Below, piece by piece: positions 8,566-41,004 of a stretch of 64,000 nucleotides of DNA. The notes beneath the pieces are model-generated. The model had not been told where the DNA came from. It searched no databases and saw nothing but the letters and a program-made list of their open reading frames with translations. Position 1 is the stretch's first letter. Each line of letters opens with the position of its first letter. Source of the stretch: Myxococcota bacterium (GTDB taxonomy: Bacteria > Myxococcota_A > UBA9160 > UBA4427); assembly GCA_046583095.1 (NCBI GenBank), contig JAYGDB010000048.1, positions 18,865 to 82,864 of the forward strand. The letters run 5' to 3'. The translations under genes were made by a program, and so were the position numbers.

Positions 8566-9867
8566 ATGCGCAATCGAATCCGTGGGCTGTTCACCAGCCT
8601 CGCGGTGACGCTCGTTCCGCTGCTGTTCCCCGCCCGAGCCATGGCGGAAGACGCGATCAGTCCCGGAGATACCGCCTGGATGTTGACGAGCAGCGCGCTC
8701 ATCCTGCTGATGACCCTGCCGGGCCTGGCTCTCTTCTACGGGGGCTTGGTTCGCACCAGGAACATCCTGTCGGTACTGATGCAGTGCATGATCACAGCGG
8801 CCGTAATCGGGGTCCTGTGGGTCATCGTCGGATACAGCCTCGCCTTCGATGAGGGCAACGCCTTCGTGGGCGGCCTGGGCATGCTGGGGCTGAGCGGAAT
8901 CGGCCCCGACTCCGTTTCGGGAACCATTCCCACCTACGTATTCGTGATGTTCCAGGGGATGTTCGCGATCATCACGCCGGCGCTGATGCTCGGTGCGTTC
9001 GCAGAGCGGATGAAGTTCAGCGCCTACATCGCCTTCATCGTACTGTGGGTACTGATCGTCTACTGCCCGCTGGCCCACATGGTCTGGGGGGGCGGTTGGA
9101 TCGGCGCTGACCTCGGCGCCAAGGACTTCGCCGGCGGACTCGTCGTGCACATGTCGAGCGGGTTCTCCGCCCTGGCCGCAGCGATCTACATCGGTAAGCG
9201 ACGTGGCTTCGGGAGCGAGCCGATGGCTCCGAACAGTCTGCCCCTCACCGTGATCGGCGTGTCGCTTCTGTGGGTCGGCTGGTTCGGCTTCAACGCGGGC
9301 AGCGCACTGGAAGCAAACGGCACGGCCGGCCTGGCATTCCTCACGACCCAGACCTCCGCCGCGACCAGCGTCTTGGTGTGGACGATCATCGAGTGGATCC
9401 ACCGCGGTAAGCCCACCGTACTCGGGGCCGCAACCGGCGCCGTGGCCGGCCTCGGCGCCATCACGCCCGCTTGCGCCTTCGTCGGTCCGATGGGCGCAAT
9501 TGCGGTGGGCGCAGTTTCCGCGGGGCTCTGCTACACGGCCGTCACGCTCCTCAAACCGGCTCTCGGATACGACGACTCCCTCGACGTCTTCGGCGTCCAC
9601 GGGGTCGGGGGTGCCTGGGGCGTCATCGCAACAGGCATCTTCATCGCCGACTTCGCCCTGGACGGGGTGAGCCGAGGTGAACAGGTCATCAAGCAACTCA
9701 TCAGCGTTGGCTTCACCGCAGTGTTCGCAGTGGTCATGAGCCTCATGATCCTGGCCGTGCTGAAGACGGTCCTCGGCGGTCTGCGAGTCAGCGAAGAAGC
9801 AGAACACGAGGGCTTGGATCTCTCCGAACACTCGGAGACTGCCTATGGCTCGTACTCACCCAACTGA
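8566..9867 (+). CDS. amtB: ammonium transporter
   Basis: ATG 8566 follows GGAGGA. Has a signal peptide, then DTAWMLTSSALILLMTLPGLALFYGG and a multi-TM Amt pattern. Track ORF start 8365 is an upstream extension. Confidence 0.92.
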   Translation: MRNRIRGLFTSLAVTLVPLLFPARAMAEDAISPGDTAWMLTSSALILLMTLPGLALFYGGLVRTRNILSVLMQCMITAAVIGVLWVIVGYSLAFDEGNAFVGGLGMLGLSGIGPDSVSGTIPTYVFVMFQGMFAIITPALMLGAFAERMKFSAYIAFIVLWVLIVYCPLAHMVWGGGWIGADLGAKDFAGGLVVHMSSGFSALAAAIYIGKRRGFGSEPMAPNSLPLTVIGVSLLWVGWFGFNAGSALEANGTAGLAFLTTQTSAATSVLVWTIIEWIHRGKPTVLGAATGAVAGLGAITPACAFVGPMGAIAVGAVSAGLCYTAVTLLKPALGYDDSLDVFGVHGVGGAWGVIATGIFIADFALDGVSRGEQVIKQLISVGFTAVFAVVMSLMILAVLKTVLGGLRVSEEAEHEGLDLSEHSETAYGSYSPN

Positions 9868-34929: not shown

Positions 34930-35502
34930 TCAGTCCCCCGAACCGATCAGGACCGTATGGTAGGCCAGCGCCCGCCGGATCCCGTCTGTTGCGACACGCG
35001 TAGAGAGGGTCGCGTTCACGACCCCGTGCACGTCGCTGCCAACCCGCAGCCGATCCTGCGCGGTCTTGCCCGCAAACTGTGCGTACCACTTTTCCGAAGG
35101 CAGGTAGTCGAGGGGCTCGTGGAACGCGAGGATACGAACCGATCGAACGTCGCCCTCGGGGCCCAGGACCACCATCAACGCAGCCGGATGGGTTCGCACC
35201 GTGTGGACGTCGATGTGCGCATAGCCCAGCACCTCGTCGCCCCGGTACGCGGTGAAGATCGTCACGAGCTTCGACTCGAGCTTGGCGCGGCCGGCCTGCT
35301 GGATCGCTTCGACCTGCTCGGGGGTCAAGAGGGTCGTCTTCTTGTCGACCCGATCGGCGTCCGGGAACGCGAGGGAGATGGCCTCCTGACGCGAGTGGAA
35401 GACCTTGGCGTGGGCCGGTAGCGCGCACAGCGAGAGCACGGCGAGGGCGACGAGAACGAGACCGCCTGCAGCCACACGGCGAGCCGGCTCGTCAGAAGAC
35501 AA
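34930..35502 (-). CDS. FMN-binding domain protein (exported/anchored), probable ApbE substrate
   Basis: Signal/anchor VLVALAVLSLCALPAHA. The FMN_bind-like C-terminus DVHGVVNATLSTRV resembles the (S/T)GA(T/S) flavinylation site. Confidence 0.75.
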   Translation of the reverse strand: MSSDEPARRVAAGGLVLVALAVLSLCALPAHAKVFHSRQEAISLAFPDADRVDKKTTLLTPEQVEAIQQAGRAKLESKLVTIFTAYRGDEVLGYAHIDVHTVRTHPAALMVVLGPEGDVRSVRILAFHEPLDYLPSEKWYAQFAGKTAQDRLRVGSDVHGVVNATLSTRVATDGIRRALAYHTVLIGSGD

Positions 35503-36892
35503 AGCCGATGCTCGCCTGGAACTCGTCTGCGATCGATCCCCTCTTCGCGCGGAAGTCCCGATAATCCATCTTGATCACGACCTGCGGGATGGGCTTGAAG
35601 CTCAAGCCCACTACGAGCAGGTCGTAGTCGCGAGCGGGGTCCTTCGAGAACCCGCTGGCGACCGCATGCTGGGTGTCCAGGCGCTCGTACCGAAAGAAGG
35701 GCTCGAGCGACATCTCGCTCTCCCACACGAGCGGGAGCACGTCGTAGCCGATCTCCGCGTAGCCGCCGATCATCTCCTTCGCGACGGAGTCCGTTGCGCC
35801 GGCACCCAGCGCCGTCGAAAGGCGCCCGGCATCGTCCACGAAGGCCTGGGCGAACAATCCGCGCACTTTCAGACCGTGGCCCTGGTACTGCGCATGCAGC
35901 TCGTAGATGCTCACGAAAGTGTCCGGAATCGGGAAGCTCTCGTTTTCCGGGACCAATGCCGACATTCCCGGCGGCGCGGAACACGAGCTCACGCAGCGGC
36001 TGATCTGCTGGTTCTGACCGGACTTCCCGGCATATACCGACGCACCGAAGGTCAGGCCGGGCACAACCGCACTCATGTCGTAATCGAGACGTCCCACGAA
36101 GGCCCAGTGGTCCGCGAGCGCCTTGCTGCCCTTCTGACGGCCACCGCGCAGGCCACTGGAGCTGAAACCCGTCGCGTCGAAGCCGTTGACCGCGTACATC
36201 CGGTAGCCGACGTCGCCGGCCGCGCCGAGGTCGATGCTGCCGAAGATGCCGACGCCGTTCTCGCGCCAGGTGGACGGAAGAATCTGGCGCTCGACCTCCG
36301 GCCGCTCCGCACCGTAGTAGAACGGGGGCTCGTGAGCTTCGTTGAGGAAGCCCATCGGAAGCAACAACAGGCCGGCGCGAATGTTGAACTCTTCCTCGAA
36401 CAGGAAGTCGATGGTCAGGAACTCCACGGATGCCGAGCCTTTCCCGCTCGTGCTGCCGTGCTCGAACTCCACCTCGGAGTTGAGAACCAGCCAGTCGTTG
36501 AACTTGTAACCGGTATAGAGAACGAAGCGGAGGGCATCGAAGATGTCCTGGGAGCTGCCCGCGTCCTTCAGGAAGTGGCGGAAGCGGATGTCGCCGTAGC
36601 CGCCGATGGAGAGGCCCCGGTCGCGCCGGTAGACCTTCGAAGCCGCCGGCCCCAGCCCGGAGAAACTCGCGTTCGGGTCGGCCTCGTCGGGCACGGCCTG
36701 CTCGCTCCTGAGGTCCGCGATCTCCTCTGCGAGCACTTCGATCTTCTCTTCGAGGACCTCGATGGCGGTCTTCGTCCTCACCGCTTCGTCCGGCTCGGCC
36801 GCCAGGGCAACCGGGCCGCAGAGGCAGCCGACGACCGCCATCAGACAGACCTCCCGGGCCCAGCCCGAGCCGCGCCGGCCTTGCTTCTGCAT
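35492..36892 (-). CDS. outer-membrane porin (phosphate-selective OprO/P-like) with N-terminal coiled coil
   Basis: GGAGG RBS, signal peptide ..VALAA|EP, heptad segment AIEVLEEKIEVLAEEIADL, long beta-rich body, and terminal ..SIGFVF. Confidence 0.75.
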   Translation of the reverse strand: MQKQGRRGSGWAREVCLMAVVGCLCGPVALAAEPDEAVRTKTAIEVLEEKIEVLAEEIADLRSEQAVPDEADPNASFSGLGPAASKVYRRDRGLSIGGYGDIRFRHFLKDAGSSQDIFDALRFVLYTGYKFNDWLVLNSEVEFEHGSTSGKGSASVEFLTIDFLFEEEFNIRAGLLLLPMGFLNEAHEPPFYYGAERPEVERQILPSTWRENGVGIFGSIDLGAAGDVGYRMYAVNGFDATGFSSSGLRGGRQKGSKALADHWAFVGRLDYDMSAVVPGLTFGASVYAGKSGQNQQISRCVSSCSAPPGMSALVPENESFPIPDTFVSIYELHAQYQGHGLKVRGLFAQAFVDDAGRLSTALGAGATDSVAKEMIGGYAEIGYDVLPLVWESEMSLEPFFRYERLDTQHAVASGFSKDPARDYDLLVVGLSFKPIPQVVIKMDYRDFRAKRGSIADEFQASIGFVF

Positions 36893-36975
36893 GATTCGTC
36901 AGCCTCCACGCCGCGAAGGGCTCGCGATGCCGAAAACGGCAGCCGCTATCATTAACGAAAACGGTTTTCAATTTC

Positions 36976-37276: not shown

Positions 37277-38263
37277 ATGGACTTCATCCACGTGTTTGCC
37301 GCCTTCATGGATTTCATGCAGACCTTTGGCGCGTTCTTCGTCGCCCTCGCGGTGACCCTGGCCATCGTGCAGGTGTTCTTCTCCTACGCGCTGCAAGTAA
37401 TCGCCGAGAAGAACGAGTTGTCCGACTCTGCTGCGTTCATCGCATGGATTCCGATCCTGAACCTCTACCCGTTCGTCAAGGTGGGTGGAGGTAACTTCAA
37501 GACGTTCGTCTTCGGCAGCATCGGAGCCTGCGTCGCCGCCGTCGTGACGGTCAAGGGCATGGCGGCGATGGGTGTCGATGGAGTCAATCTCAGCCTCGTT
37601 GCGGCGGCCCTCGCTCTGCTCGGCATCGCCTACTTCGCGCGCATCGCGATGGCGACAGCGGAGCGCCGGGGTCTCAACAAGTGGCTCGGGCTGCTCGCCC
37701 TGGTTCCCGTCGCGAACTTCCTCATCTACCCGTACATCGCGTTCCACGACGGCTTCAAGCCTCCGAAGAAGCTGGCGCTGGTTCTCGGCTTGCTGCTCGC
37801 CTTCGGCCCGCTGCCGATGGAAATCGCGAGACTCGAGCAGCTCAACAAGACGACGCAGGAGATCGCCCAGACCGATCGGGGCAATGGCGTCACCATCGGG
37901 CAGTCCCTCCATGCTCTCCAGGCAACCCGGGAGGTCGGCCTCCTGGTCGCCATGGTCGCGGGCCTCGATCCCTCGGATCCGGACGAACGCTCGAAGATGA
38001 TCGACGCTCTCGACTCCGCTCAGAAGAAGCTCGACGAGCACGCGGAAGCCATCAACGACGAGGTGTACCAGACGCTCCAGGGCCTGCTGTCCGTGCAGTC
38101 CGCCCGCCTCGCGAAGACCTCGACTGACGACATGCATAATGCCGCAGCCGACAGTCCCGAAGCGTCGCCGGCGGTCGCTGCGGACCCCGTCGCGAAGACG
38201 GACGTGTCGCTCGAGTCGCCTCTGCAAATCGCCGAGGGCGCAGCACCCCCCGCCAGTCGCTAG
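37277..38263 (+). CDS. hypothetical membrane protein (N-terminal multi-TM half, C-terminal helical soluble half)
   Basis: GGGAG RBS. Internal repeat-like WIPILNLYPF / LALVPVANFLIYPY TM motifs. No recognised family. Confidence 0.65.
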   Translation: MDFIHVFAAFMDFMQTFGAFFVALAVTLAIVQVFFSYALQVIAEKNELSDSAAFIAWIPILNLYPFVKVGGGNFKTFVFGSIGACVAAVVTVKGMAAMGVDGVNLSLVAAALALLGIAYFARIAMATAERRGLNKWLGLLALVPVANFLIYPYIAFHDGFKPPKKLALVLGLLLAFGPLPMEIARLEQLNKTTQEIAQTDRGNGVTIGQSLHALQATREVGLLVAMVAGLDPSDPDERSKMIDALDSAQKKLDEHAEAINDEVYQTLQGLLSVQSARLAKTSTDDMHNAAADSPEASPAVAADPVAKTDVSLESPLQIAEGAAPPASR

Positions 38264-38313: not shown

Positions 38314-39360
38314 CTAGCTGGGGACGACCTCGATCGCGCCGGGCTCGCCTGTGCAGACCTCGCCGATCGTCGCTCGCGCGAGGGTGCCTCTGGCCTCGAG
38401 GTCGGCGAGGAGCGCGGCCTCGTTCTCCTGAGATACGGCCAGGAGCAAGCCACCCGAGGTCTGGGCATCCGCCAGCACCAGTCGGTCGATCTCGGCGACG
38501 CCGGTCGCGAAGCGCGCGGCCTTCGCGACGTATTCCAGGTTGCGCTTGCTGCCTCCCGGCACGAAACCCGCCTCGGCGAGCTCCCGGGTCGAGCGCAAGA
38601 GCGGAACTTCCGACGCCACCAGACGCGCCGCACAGCCGGAAGCGTTCAGCATGTTGTGGAGGTGGCCGAGCAGACCGAAGCCCGTCACATCGGTCGCAGC
38701 TCGAACTCCCGCCGCTAGCGCCGCGTCTCGAGCGCCGTCGTTGAGACACAACATCGAAGCCACCACCTCGCGCAGTCCGTCCGGATCGAGCTGCTGCTTC
38801 TTGAGGGCCTGGGCGGCGATGCCCGCGCCGATCGGCTTCGTCAGCACCAGCTTGTCGCCGGGCCGGGCGGCAGCCTGGGTCAGAGTCCGATCCGGGTCCA
38901 CCGTGCCCAGCACACAGAGCCCATACTTGAGCTCAGGATCGAGCACCGTGTGACCGCCGGCGACCGCACAGCCCGCCTCGGCGGCCTTGTCGCGTCCACC
39001 CTGGAAGATCTTCGCGAGAACCTCGCGAGGCAATTTCTCCTCCGGGAAGCCGCAGATCGCGAGGGCGATCTGTGGCACGCCTCCCATCGCATAGACGTCG
39101 GAGATCGCGTTGGCGGCTGCGATTGCGCCGTAGTCGTACGGATCGTCCACGACCGGCGTGATGAAATCGACAGTGAACACGAGGGGTGAGCCGGATTCCG
39201 GACGCAGGAGTGCCGCATCCTCCATGGAGCCGACTTCGGCATCGACCCACGGATGATCGAAAGGCACGACCTGCTCCAGGACCTCGACGAGGCCCTCAGC
39301 GGAGAGCTTGCGGGCTCAGCCGCCGCCGGGAACGAGCGATGTCAATCGAATCTCGCTCAC
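38314..39360 (-). CDS. selD: selenide, water dikinase (selenophosphate synthetase), Sec-containing; in-frame TGA at 39316-39318
   Basis: The track ORF (38314..39267) lacks the SelD N-terminus. Reading upstream in frame gives GTG(39360)-SEIRLTSLVPGGG-U-ARKLSAEGLVEVLEQVV-PFDHP. This aligns with E. coli IRLTQYSHGAGC17GCK20ISPKVLETIL, with U on Cys17 and the Lys conserved. GAGGAGAAGG RBS precedes it, and 348 codons compares with 347 in E. coli. Confidence 0.9.
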
Positions 39361-39482
39361 GACCTTCTCCTCGCGCGTTGCATGCGCGTGCGCCGAGGAT
39401 AGGGCGCAGAGCGAGGGCCGCCTTTAGTTGGATCGGACCACTCGGGGAGGCCGCCAGGGCCTGGGAACTGACACCGCTGTCA

Positions 39483-39661: not shown

Positions 39662-40819
39662 TTAGTTGATCGCTGTGACGGATTCGGGCAAGTCCTGCGC
39701 AACCCGAATGATCGGAATCCCGTCCTGGGTGTTCTGATGCATCTCCTCGAAACACCGGGGCAGATCTTCGAACGCGTAGATCTCGCTGTGAATCGTGGGT
39801 TTGAAGACCGACCCGTAAAGCTGGGTTGCGGCCGAACACCCGCTCACCGTCTCGTAGTGGATGTGATCGAGGGTGATCTGCTTGGTCGAGGCCCCGGCCG
39901 AGTTGTATTTGACGCCGGTATCCAGCTGCCAGCCTGCGCTCACGTTGACGCCCTGGCGGGACGCCACCGACAGACCCGCTGCGAAGACGGGGCCCCGGAG
40001 CATGTCGCAGACGATGTGCATTCCGACCCGGTTCGTGAGCTGCTTGCACTCGCCGTTGAATGCCTTCACGTCGTCCCGGGACGCGAAGCGGTTGAAGACC
40101 TTCTGGTCGATTCCGACGATTCCCAGCTCCTCGAGGGCCTTCCGGCGCTCGGGGCTCCCCGAGCAGAAGAAAGCGTTGTGGCCCTCGCTCTTGGCGAGCA
40201 TCAGGAACAGCTCGCTCACGCCGCCGCCGAATCCGAGAACATTCAGCGTGGGCAGCTGATCCCCGGCCACCTTGAGACGGAAGATCCCCAGGGCCCTGCG
40301 CCAGAGGTGGTGTGCGGTGGGGGCGCGCAACGGAAGCGCCGCGATCTCCCACAGGTTCAGACCGCAATCCAGGGGAGCCGGGACGAGCTGCCATTCTTCG
40401 ACCACCGCTTCTTCTGCATACCAGCCGACCGACTCGGGCTGGTCATAGGCCCAGATGCGCAGGGGGTAGCCGTACTCGTCGGGCTCCCCGTTGCAGTGGG
40501 TGATCGCAATGTCTCCGACCTCGAACCGGGTCACGTCGGAACCGACGGCGATCACCTCGCCCACCGCCGAGTTGCCCGGATAGATCTTGCCGCCGCGGAT
40601 GTCGGCGATGTTCACGGTATCGGCCAACGCGGCGTGGTCGACGTTGTGCTCTGCGGAGACCGCCAGGATGCGCAGGTGGACGTCGCTGTTGCCGATCTCG
40701 CGCAGCTCGAGGTCGTCCAGCGCGATGATTCGCGAGACGTCGACCTGGGACAGGTCGTCGTTCACGCGCTGCCGCTCGGCAGCAATGGCGTCCACAGAAA
40801 TCGAATAGGCTCGGGGCAT
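39662..40819 (-). CDS. medium-chain dehydrogenase/reductase (MDR, crotonyl-CoA-reductase-like) family protein
   Basis: ATG 40819 follows GAGAGGA. GroES-like N-domain (GKIYPGNSAVGEVIAVGSDVTRFEVGDIA) and a Rossmann-like VLGFGGGVSELFLMLAK. Visibly lower GC than its neighbours. Confidence 0.7.
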   Translation of the reverse strand: MPRAYSISVDAIAAERQRVNDDLSQVDVSRIIALDDLELREIGNSDVHLRILAVSAEHNVDHAALADTVNIADIRGGKIYPGNSAVGEVIAVGSDVTRFEVGDIAITHCNGEPDEYGYPLRIWAYDQPESVGWYAEEAVVEEWQLVPAPLDCGLNLWEIAALPLRAPTAHHLWRRALGIFRLKVAGDQLPTLNVLGFGGGVSELFLMLAKSEGHNAFFCSGSPERRKALEELGIVGIDQKVFNRFASRDDVKAFNGECKQLTNRVGMHIVCDMLRGPVFAAGLSVASRQGVNVSAGWQLDTGVKYNSAGASTKQITLDHIHYETVSGCSAATQLYGSVFKPTIHSEIYAFEDLPRCFEEMHQNTQDGIPIIRVAQDLPESVTAIN

Positions 40820-41004
40820 CTTGGGGGGTCCTCTCGGCAGGAAGCGGAACCGCACGGTACAGCCCTCCTGCCCGAATCTTCAACCCCGCGCTGCGGCGCC
40901 GCGAGGAAGCGGCCGGGGGCAGCTGCGCGGCTCTCGCTCCCCGCCCCATGGGTGGGGCCACCCGAAGCGTCGCAGTAGAGTCTCTCCGAACCCCCCAGGA
41001 GACG

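Follow-up and report, generated by a model that had tools for sequence, protein, structure and literature searches.

The window, the whole 64,000-nucleotide stretch of Myxococcota DNA that was analysed, contains on its minus strand a gene that we predict to encode a selenocysteine (Sec)-containing selenophosphate synthetase, SelD. Read directly, the frame between a GTG at 39360-39358 and a TAG at 38316-38314 holds a single in-frame TGA (39318-39316). Reading this codon as U gives a product of 348 residues, from 348 codons followed by the TAG, and its translation starts VSEIRLTSLVPGGG-U-ARKLSAEGLVEVLEQVV. The ORF list made with translation table 11 gives at selD only 38314..39267, a 317-residue ORF with a GTG start. 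An earlier note on this DNA had claimed that the in-frame UGA at 39316-39318 shortens selD in the ORF track, which the frame and the ORF list bear out. The upstream peptide that it described, a putative ribosome binding site before the GTG at 39360 and a length of 348 codons can all be read in the sequence. The features of the gene and its surroundings are as follows.

38314..39360, minus strand: selD, complete coding sequence of the Sec type with U predicted at residue 15 (sequence, translation, SelD models, AIRS/AIRS_C domains)
39363..39372, minus strand: putative Shine-Dalgarno-like GAGGAGAAGG, 2 bases before the GTG, read directly and given this function from its position only
39358..39360, minus strand: start codon of selD, GTG; the corresponding codon in orthologues is ATG, GTG or TTG, in M/V-x-x-[ILV]-R-L-T
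39316..39318, minus strand: in-frame TGA, predicted Sec, residue 15, equivalent to Cys17 of E. coli SelD (alignment, orthologue conservation)
39265..39267, minus strand: internal GTG (Val32), the start in the plain ORF call; not a real start, orthologues differ
39662-40855, minus strand: zinc-ADH-like gene, upstream of selD on the same strand across a 300-nt gap
37277-38263, plus strand: 328-amino-acid gene that looks like a membrane protein, convergent with selD and downstream of it
35492-36898, minus strand: second coding frame without a family match

The frames at 37277-38263 and 35492-36898 have a GC3 of 0.85-0.87 and no Pfam or NCBIfam match. We considered a selenium-related operon around selD and ruled it out, since the neighbours are unrelated and the downstream gene lies beside selD only within the genus.

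The SelD product and the N-terminus missing from the ORF track

The full product matches two SelD equivalog models: TIGR00476 with 351.7 bits (cut-off 125; residues 5-313 against positions 1-310 of 311) and NF002098 with 315.7 bits (cut-off 299; residues 3-341 against positions 5-340 of 347). Comparison of all 348 residues with SelD profiles had been proposed in the earlier note, and the product passes both models. Both matches reach upstream of the TGA, to residue 3-5. Pfam finds PF00586 (AIRS; 93.7 bits, residues 47-154) and PF02769 (AIRS_C; 77 bits, residues 166-341). The motifs DDAA, TxDF, NAxSD, and TDVTGFGL, with roles known from SelD structures, are conserved with E. coli SelD. The gene product is a stand-alone selenophosphate synthetase of the SelD family, with a predicted activity that makes selenophosphate, AMP, and Pi from ATP and selenide.

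Among solved structures, the best phmmer match is E. coli SelD (3u0o, E 3.9e-64, residues 3-339 against 5-338) and the second is Aquifex aeolicus SelD (2yye, E 1.1e-61). The alignment sets GGG-U15-AR-K18 against GAG-C17-GC-K20 in 3u0o and SSG-C-AA-K in 2yye, in agreement with the proposal that the TGA falls on E. coli Cys17 and that Lys20 is kept. In the A. aeolicus alignment, U15 falls on the Cys that stands in for the natural Sec in the crystallised protein. The 317-residue product of the ORF track is without the glycine-rich loop that carries the catalytic Sec/Cys and Lys.

The known Sec-type SelD proteins of A. aeolicus (PDB 2yye/2zod, Sec13Cys form) and Haemophilus influenzae belong to TIGR00476 and have the same length as the window SelD. 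They share with it the Sec in an N-terminal G-x-G-U-x-x-K loop and a SECIS inside the coding sequence just after the UGA. The window SelD does not differ from them in kind; it has its own hairpin sequence, GAGGRCCUS-GUN-SAGGUCCU, and comes from a new lineage. The Cys-type SelD of E. coli (3u0o) aligns with it end to end and shares the Lys20, but has Cys17 (UGC) and no SECIS where the window gene has UGA and a hairpin. Fusions of the TIGR04369 'fusion_not_SelD' or Ndh-SelD type share an AIRS-fold SelD-like domain with the window SelD. Matches of the fusion type have no stop, whereas the window SelD is a stand-alone protein of 348 residues with a TGA, and it scores only 120.6 bits against the TIGR04369 cut-off of 700.

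Among prokaryotic SelD genes, 19% encode Sec, in every case at this site, and bacterial SECIS elements have been recovered from Sec-encoding SelD genes (Mariotti et al. 2015, PMC4561486). SelD is the second most widespread prokaryotic selenoprotein family (PMC13188914). Both papers agree with the statement in the earlier note that Sec-containing SelD is established in many bacteria.

Conservation of the UGA and of a hairpin behind it

We compared the gene with a close set of 40 relatives from the same genus, family, and order. All 22 of the SelD orthologues at 62-78% identity in this set have exactly one in-frame TGA, and with the window gene the TGA is at the identical place in 23 of 23 sequences, in LVP[AG]GG-TGA-ARKL. 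Before it, these 23 sequences have a conserved [ILV]-R-L-[TS], and they start 13-15 codons ahead of the TGA with ATG, GTG or TTG. The possibility, raised earlier, that the internal GTG is the true start does not agree with these orthologue starts. In the extracted N-termini, residue 32 is Ala, Ser or Pro in most orthologues, and the GTG of Val32 is therefore not a conserved start.

The wider set of 80 named genome records consists mostly of metagenome-assembled genomes (MAGs) labelled Myxococcota, Myxococcales or 'Deltaproteobacteria', with Dehalococcoidia and Gemmatimonadota among the farther ones. At the SelD site, 73 of them have TGA, four a clear TGC (Cys), and one a TGC in a doubtful motif; two are cut off. 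Because the same TGA site and upstream peptide occur in 22 of 22 close orthologues and the TGA in 73 of 80 named relatives, we conclude that the TGA is not there by chance, although related sequences are not independent and counts of this kind, for the TGA and for the hairpin below, overstate significance. An even sample of the phylum (201 genomes) has a SelD match at E <= 1e-60 in 94 genomes; by a hand count, about 58 of the 99 SelD matches listed contain a single TGA, among them every match above 53% identity.

Twelve relatives are without a Sec-type SelD (G007, G008, G010, G012, G015, G016, G021, G022, G030, G031, G035, and G039; loci L041-L047). They have a SelD-like domain at 35-41% identity, with no stop, in frames of about 750 amino acids or longer. 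These long frames probably belong to the oxidoreductase/SelD-related fusion family TIGR04369.

Behind the UGA we predict a SECIS-type hairpin, which folds in each of the orthologues as well. Its parts, with a smaller stem nearer to the UGA, are:

39278..39296, minus strand: SECIS-type hairpin, 8 bp with a 3-nt loop (fold, pair counts, synonymous-site tests, published criteria)
39296-39289, minus strand: 5' arm, AGGGCCUC
39288-39286, minus strand: loop, GUC
39285-39278, minus strand: 3' arm, GAGGUCCU
39304..39317, minus strand: possible small proximal stem GAGC-N6-GCUC, which includes the GA of the UGA (MFE and RNAalifold)

The hairpin begins 19 nt after the UGA. In the published model of the bacterial SECIS (PMC13188914, Fig. 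2 legend), the upper stem has 4-16 bp and the apical loop 3-9 nt; one or both of the first two loop nucleotides are G, in most cases with G or U next; the loop lies 16-37 nt from the UGA; and the minimum free energy (MFE) is -7.5 kcal/mol or lower. The selD hairpin agrees with it on all four counts, with a 3-nt loop on 8 bp, the G of GUC, a UGA-to-loop spacing of 27 nt, and, for the 27-nt segment of the window that holds the hairpin, an MFE of -13.0 kcal/mol. The loop is GUN or GGU in the 21 orthologues with an intact closing pair; the two sequences in which this pair is broken have a 5-nt loop with G in the second position. For the proximal stem, MFE and RNAalifold both predict the pairs 9-20, 10-19, and 11-18, which are invariant across the sequences.

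The earlier note had proposed a search for a SECIS hairpin just 3' of the UGA and named two candidate stems. A hairpin is there, conserved, with one covarying pair, and it is lost in Cys forms. The CCUC-GUC-GAGG of the note is the apex of the supported hairpin, and its GCCC..GGGC lies outside the supported structure. Folded as a single sequence, the 71-nt region does not stand out from dinucleotide shuffles (z = -1.29), and we therefore relied on comparative tests. The gathering-threshold scan of the whole window with Rfam gave no match, which neither supports the hairpin nor speaks against it.

Four stem controls were run because the stem sits in conserved codons, E-[GD]-L-V-[EQ]-V-L. Standard pairs fill 97.8% of the alignment cells in 23 sequences; shifting the 3' partners by 1-3 columns lowers this to 21-55%. 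The closing pair (36-40) is G-C in 15 sequences, C-G in six, and broken in two. Its compensation couples a Leu codon (CUC/CUG), at the third base, to a Glu/Gln codon (GAG/CAG), at the first. Only this one of the eight stem pairs covaries; the other seven are invariant or change one-sidedly between Watson-Crick and wobble pairs. When synonymous codons are resampled with the genes' own codon usage, the full 8-bp stem arises in about 10-20% of trials per sequence, while it is actually present in 19 of the 23 sequences.

Third positions point the same way. Over 139 conserved four-fold columns of selD the mean third-position entropy is 1.23 bits, and 3% of the columns are at 0.5 bits or below; in the 3' arm, the Val codon has 0.47 bits and the Leu codon 0.29, and the loop Val is free to vary. 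The stem Val codon in 74 TGA forms is GUC in 72, GUU in two, and GUG in none, with GUC and GUG used about equally in these genes (306 vs 294). The two Cys forms with Val at this site both have GUG there. Of the 8 stem pairs, the four Cys forms retain only 6, 6, 6, and 4, and one of them has the identical peptide EDLVQVL. The stem peptide E-[DG]-L-V-[EQ]-V-L is partly conserved in Cys forms too, and part of the nucleotide conservation therefore comes from the protein.

Two Gemmatimonadota MAG loci (L123 and L130) have a different, shifted hairpin, GGCGCAA-GGUCU-UUGCGCC, at a similar distance from the TGA (13-31 nt into a segment that starts 15 nt after it). From the sequences, the SECIS seems to have turned over here while the UGA stayed conserved.

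Selenocysteine machinery and further UGA-containing genes

The assembly has 3.86 Mb in 238 contigs and is 94% complete; the G+C content of the window is 66.7%. The genome encodes the genes for Sec decoding, given here by contig and position:

C238:6224-7567: selA, 525 bits (cut-off 268)
C142, starting at 8782: selB, 635 amino acids, 306 bits (cut-off 242), with GTP_EFTU, SelB-wing_2, and SelB-wing_3 domains
C202:22478-22572: tRNA-Sec with anticodon UCA, a single gene, 64.8 bits; ARAGORN agrees

The SelB-wing_3 part is the SECIS binder. With selD, the genome has selA, selB, and selC, and the bacterial Sec-decoding trait is complete; a search for selA, selB, and tRNA-Sec, suggested in the earlier note, thus found all three. 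The genes serS and selB form a pair on one strand about 17 nt apart, with selB downstream (C142:7361-10689, locus L002:80-3408). Seryl-tRNA synthetase, the serS product, puts serine on tRNA-Sec. The selA gene and tRNA-Sec are located away from this pair.

TGA closes 693 of 1206 long ORFs with high GC3 (57%) and is the commonest stop. UGA is read by tRNA-Sec alone; there is one tRNA-Trp(CCA) and no suppressor tRNA. From this stop usage and tRNA set we conclude that the code is standard and that UGA is recoded only locally, and genome-wide reassignment of UGA is ruled out. ARAGORN also calls three tRNA-Ser(CGA) genes and, beside the normal tRNA-His with GTG, an unusual tRNA-His(ATG), perhaps a pseudogene or a spurious call.

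The assembly (94% complete) yielded no Cys-type SelD; its sole other AIRS-family match is a 29%-identity protein on C8. There was likewise no match to selU (TIGR03167) in the genome at this completeness. A Sec-type FdhA was not found; TIGR01553 gave sub-threshold matches to molybdopterin oxidoreductases without an internal stop.

We scored codon usage around all 36,163 in-frame TGAs of the genome and reduced the result to a short list with a filter for a nearby Cys. The upstream piece of selD itself scored near zero; the filter was added because the codon-score scan is insensitive for short N-terminal pieces. In nine candidates a Pfam domain spans the U, which lies at the redox-active Cys position of the family; they are listed here with a tenth candidate:

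C130:12785-13330: peroxiredoxin, FTPGU
C127:9971-10450: glutathione peroxidase, 135.5 bits, NLASQUG
C90:1816-2865: TlpA-like redoxin, WUGC
C175:22909-24153: AhpC/TSA-type protein with a DsbD_N domain, WUPPC
C104:33525-34742: AhpC/TSA-type protein, WUPPC
C10:657-1418: AhpC/TSA-type protein, WUPYC
C83:7079-7729: DsbA-like protein, YLUPWC
C36:9225-10094: AhpD/CMD-like protein, NECDTU
C155:7580-8752: AhpD/CMD-like protein, NECFYU
C215:2482-3357: tenth candidate, a 291-amino-acid frame with VPL-U-PVC and a CGUGA-loop hairpin downstream

The frame on C215 has no Pfam match and reaches 72.9 bits against TIGR04483 (PrdB/GrdB selenoprotein B), below the cut-off of 300; it could be an orphan selenoprotein of the PrdB-like kind. 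A hairpin follows the UGA of each candidate at 10-25 nt, with G or GU in most of the loops. As the scan is weak for Sec near protein ends, nine to ten extra selenoproteins is a minimum count. The earlier note had expected more TGA-interrupted genes in this genome and had seen no second one in the window, and the nine genes with a domain across the U, like every other extra candidate, lie outside it.

Some high-scoring TGA candidates were rejected as neighbouring genes in the same frame. Among these, those on C38 and C113 have a repeated permease-like end and then a new gene; the TGA is followed by MIELYTSPTPNGWK in the candidate on C35 and by KIYTRRGDAGETD in that at C37:33163.

Translation of selD and what it means for the organism

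We put a probability of about 0.95 on the reading that 38314-39360 is a complete selD whose UGA at codon 15 would be translated as selenocysteine by the standard bacterial route. SelA would convert Seryl-tRNA-Sec(UCA) to Sec-tRNA-Sec, using selenophosphate. SelB-GTP would then carry the Sec-tRNA-Sec, with its C-terminal winged helices on the hairpin at 39278-39296, and the hairpin-bound complex would be tethered to the ribosome as the UGA enters the A site. We infer both the binding of SelB to this hairpin and Sec as the inserted residue. As no Cys-type SelD was found in the assembly, the synthesis of SelD seems to depend on SelD's own product. Self-dependent synthesis is a known feature of organisms with a Sec-type SelD.

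The plain ORF call, taken at face value, has the TGA as a true stop and the protein starting at GTG 39267, with the 14 upstream codons as a leader ORF or non-coding. It gives exactly this 317-residue ORF, and TGA is the commonest stop in the genome, but a SelD of this form would be without the loop of the catalytic Sec/Cys and Lys. Matches to the SelD models extend back to residue 3-5, the upstream peptide and start are conserved to 62% identity and beyond, and residue 32 is mostly no start; we consider a stop here very improbable. A sequencing or assembly error, or an inactivating mutation that made a pseudogene, would have to turn a TGC Cys codon into TGA. That is one base, in a fragmented MAG of 238 contigs. 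However, 73 genomes assembled independently share the TGA, as do about 58 matches in the phylum sample; apart from it the gene is intact, with a synonymous-site constraint that fits a SECIS; and the genome has the complete Sec machinery and nine more genes that contain a UGA. Error or decay is the least probable of the explanations weighed here, close to negligible.

The UGA might also be read through as a residue other than Sec, either Cys, carried by tRNA-Sec under selenium shortage, or Trp, through near-cognate decoding. The inserted residue is not readable from the sequence alone, and with no Cys-type SelD found, SelD may need a start-up without selenophosphate. Against this, the genome has one tRNA-Trp(CCA) and no suppressor tRNA, the UGA is at the catalytic Cys/Sec position, and SECIS and SelB make up a Sec-specific route. 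Occasional insertion of Cys would be a side reaction of the same mechanism and not an alternative to it, and we give readthrough as another residue very little weight. Selenocysteine at codon 15 is thus the reading that we prefer.

The SECIS of selD, GAGGRCCUS-GUN-SAGGUCCU, is almost identical in nucleotides across Myxococcota, Dehalococcoidia, and other phyla, which would fit a lateral spread of Sec-type selD and not convergent constraint alone. A wider proposal, tentative and on the doubtful side, is that the Sec trait of this lineage is sustained by a self-dependent Sec-type SelD together with a selenoproteome of at least 10 proteins purely for thiol-redox and peroxide defence, and that Sec-type selD spread laterally with its SECIS. 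The gene also gives a clean natural control for a SECIS within a coding sequence, because the hairpin decays in Cys forms with the same peptide.

The arrangement of a Sec-type SelD is long known and common, and the result is mainly a correction of the annotation. In the ORF track selD is 31 residues short and minus its catalytic loop, and at least nine more genes are split or shortened at a UGA. With this genome, the selenoprotein-rich 'deltaproteobacterial' groups gain another uncultured member of the Myxococcota. Naive gene calls understate the peroxide and thiol-redox defences of this organism and would mislabel it as being without a functional SelD.
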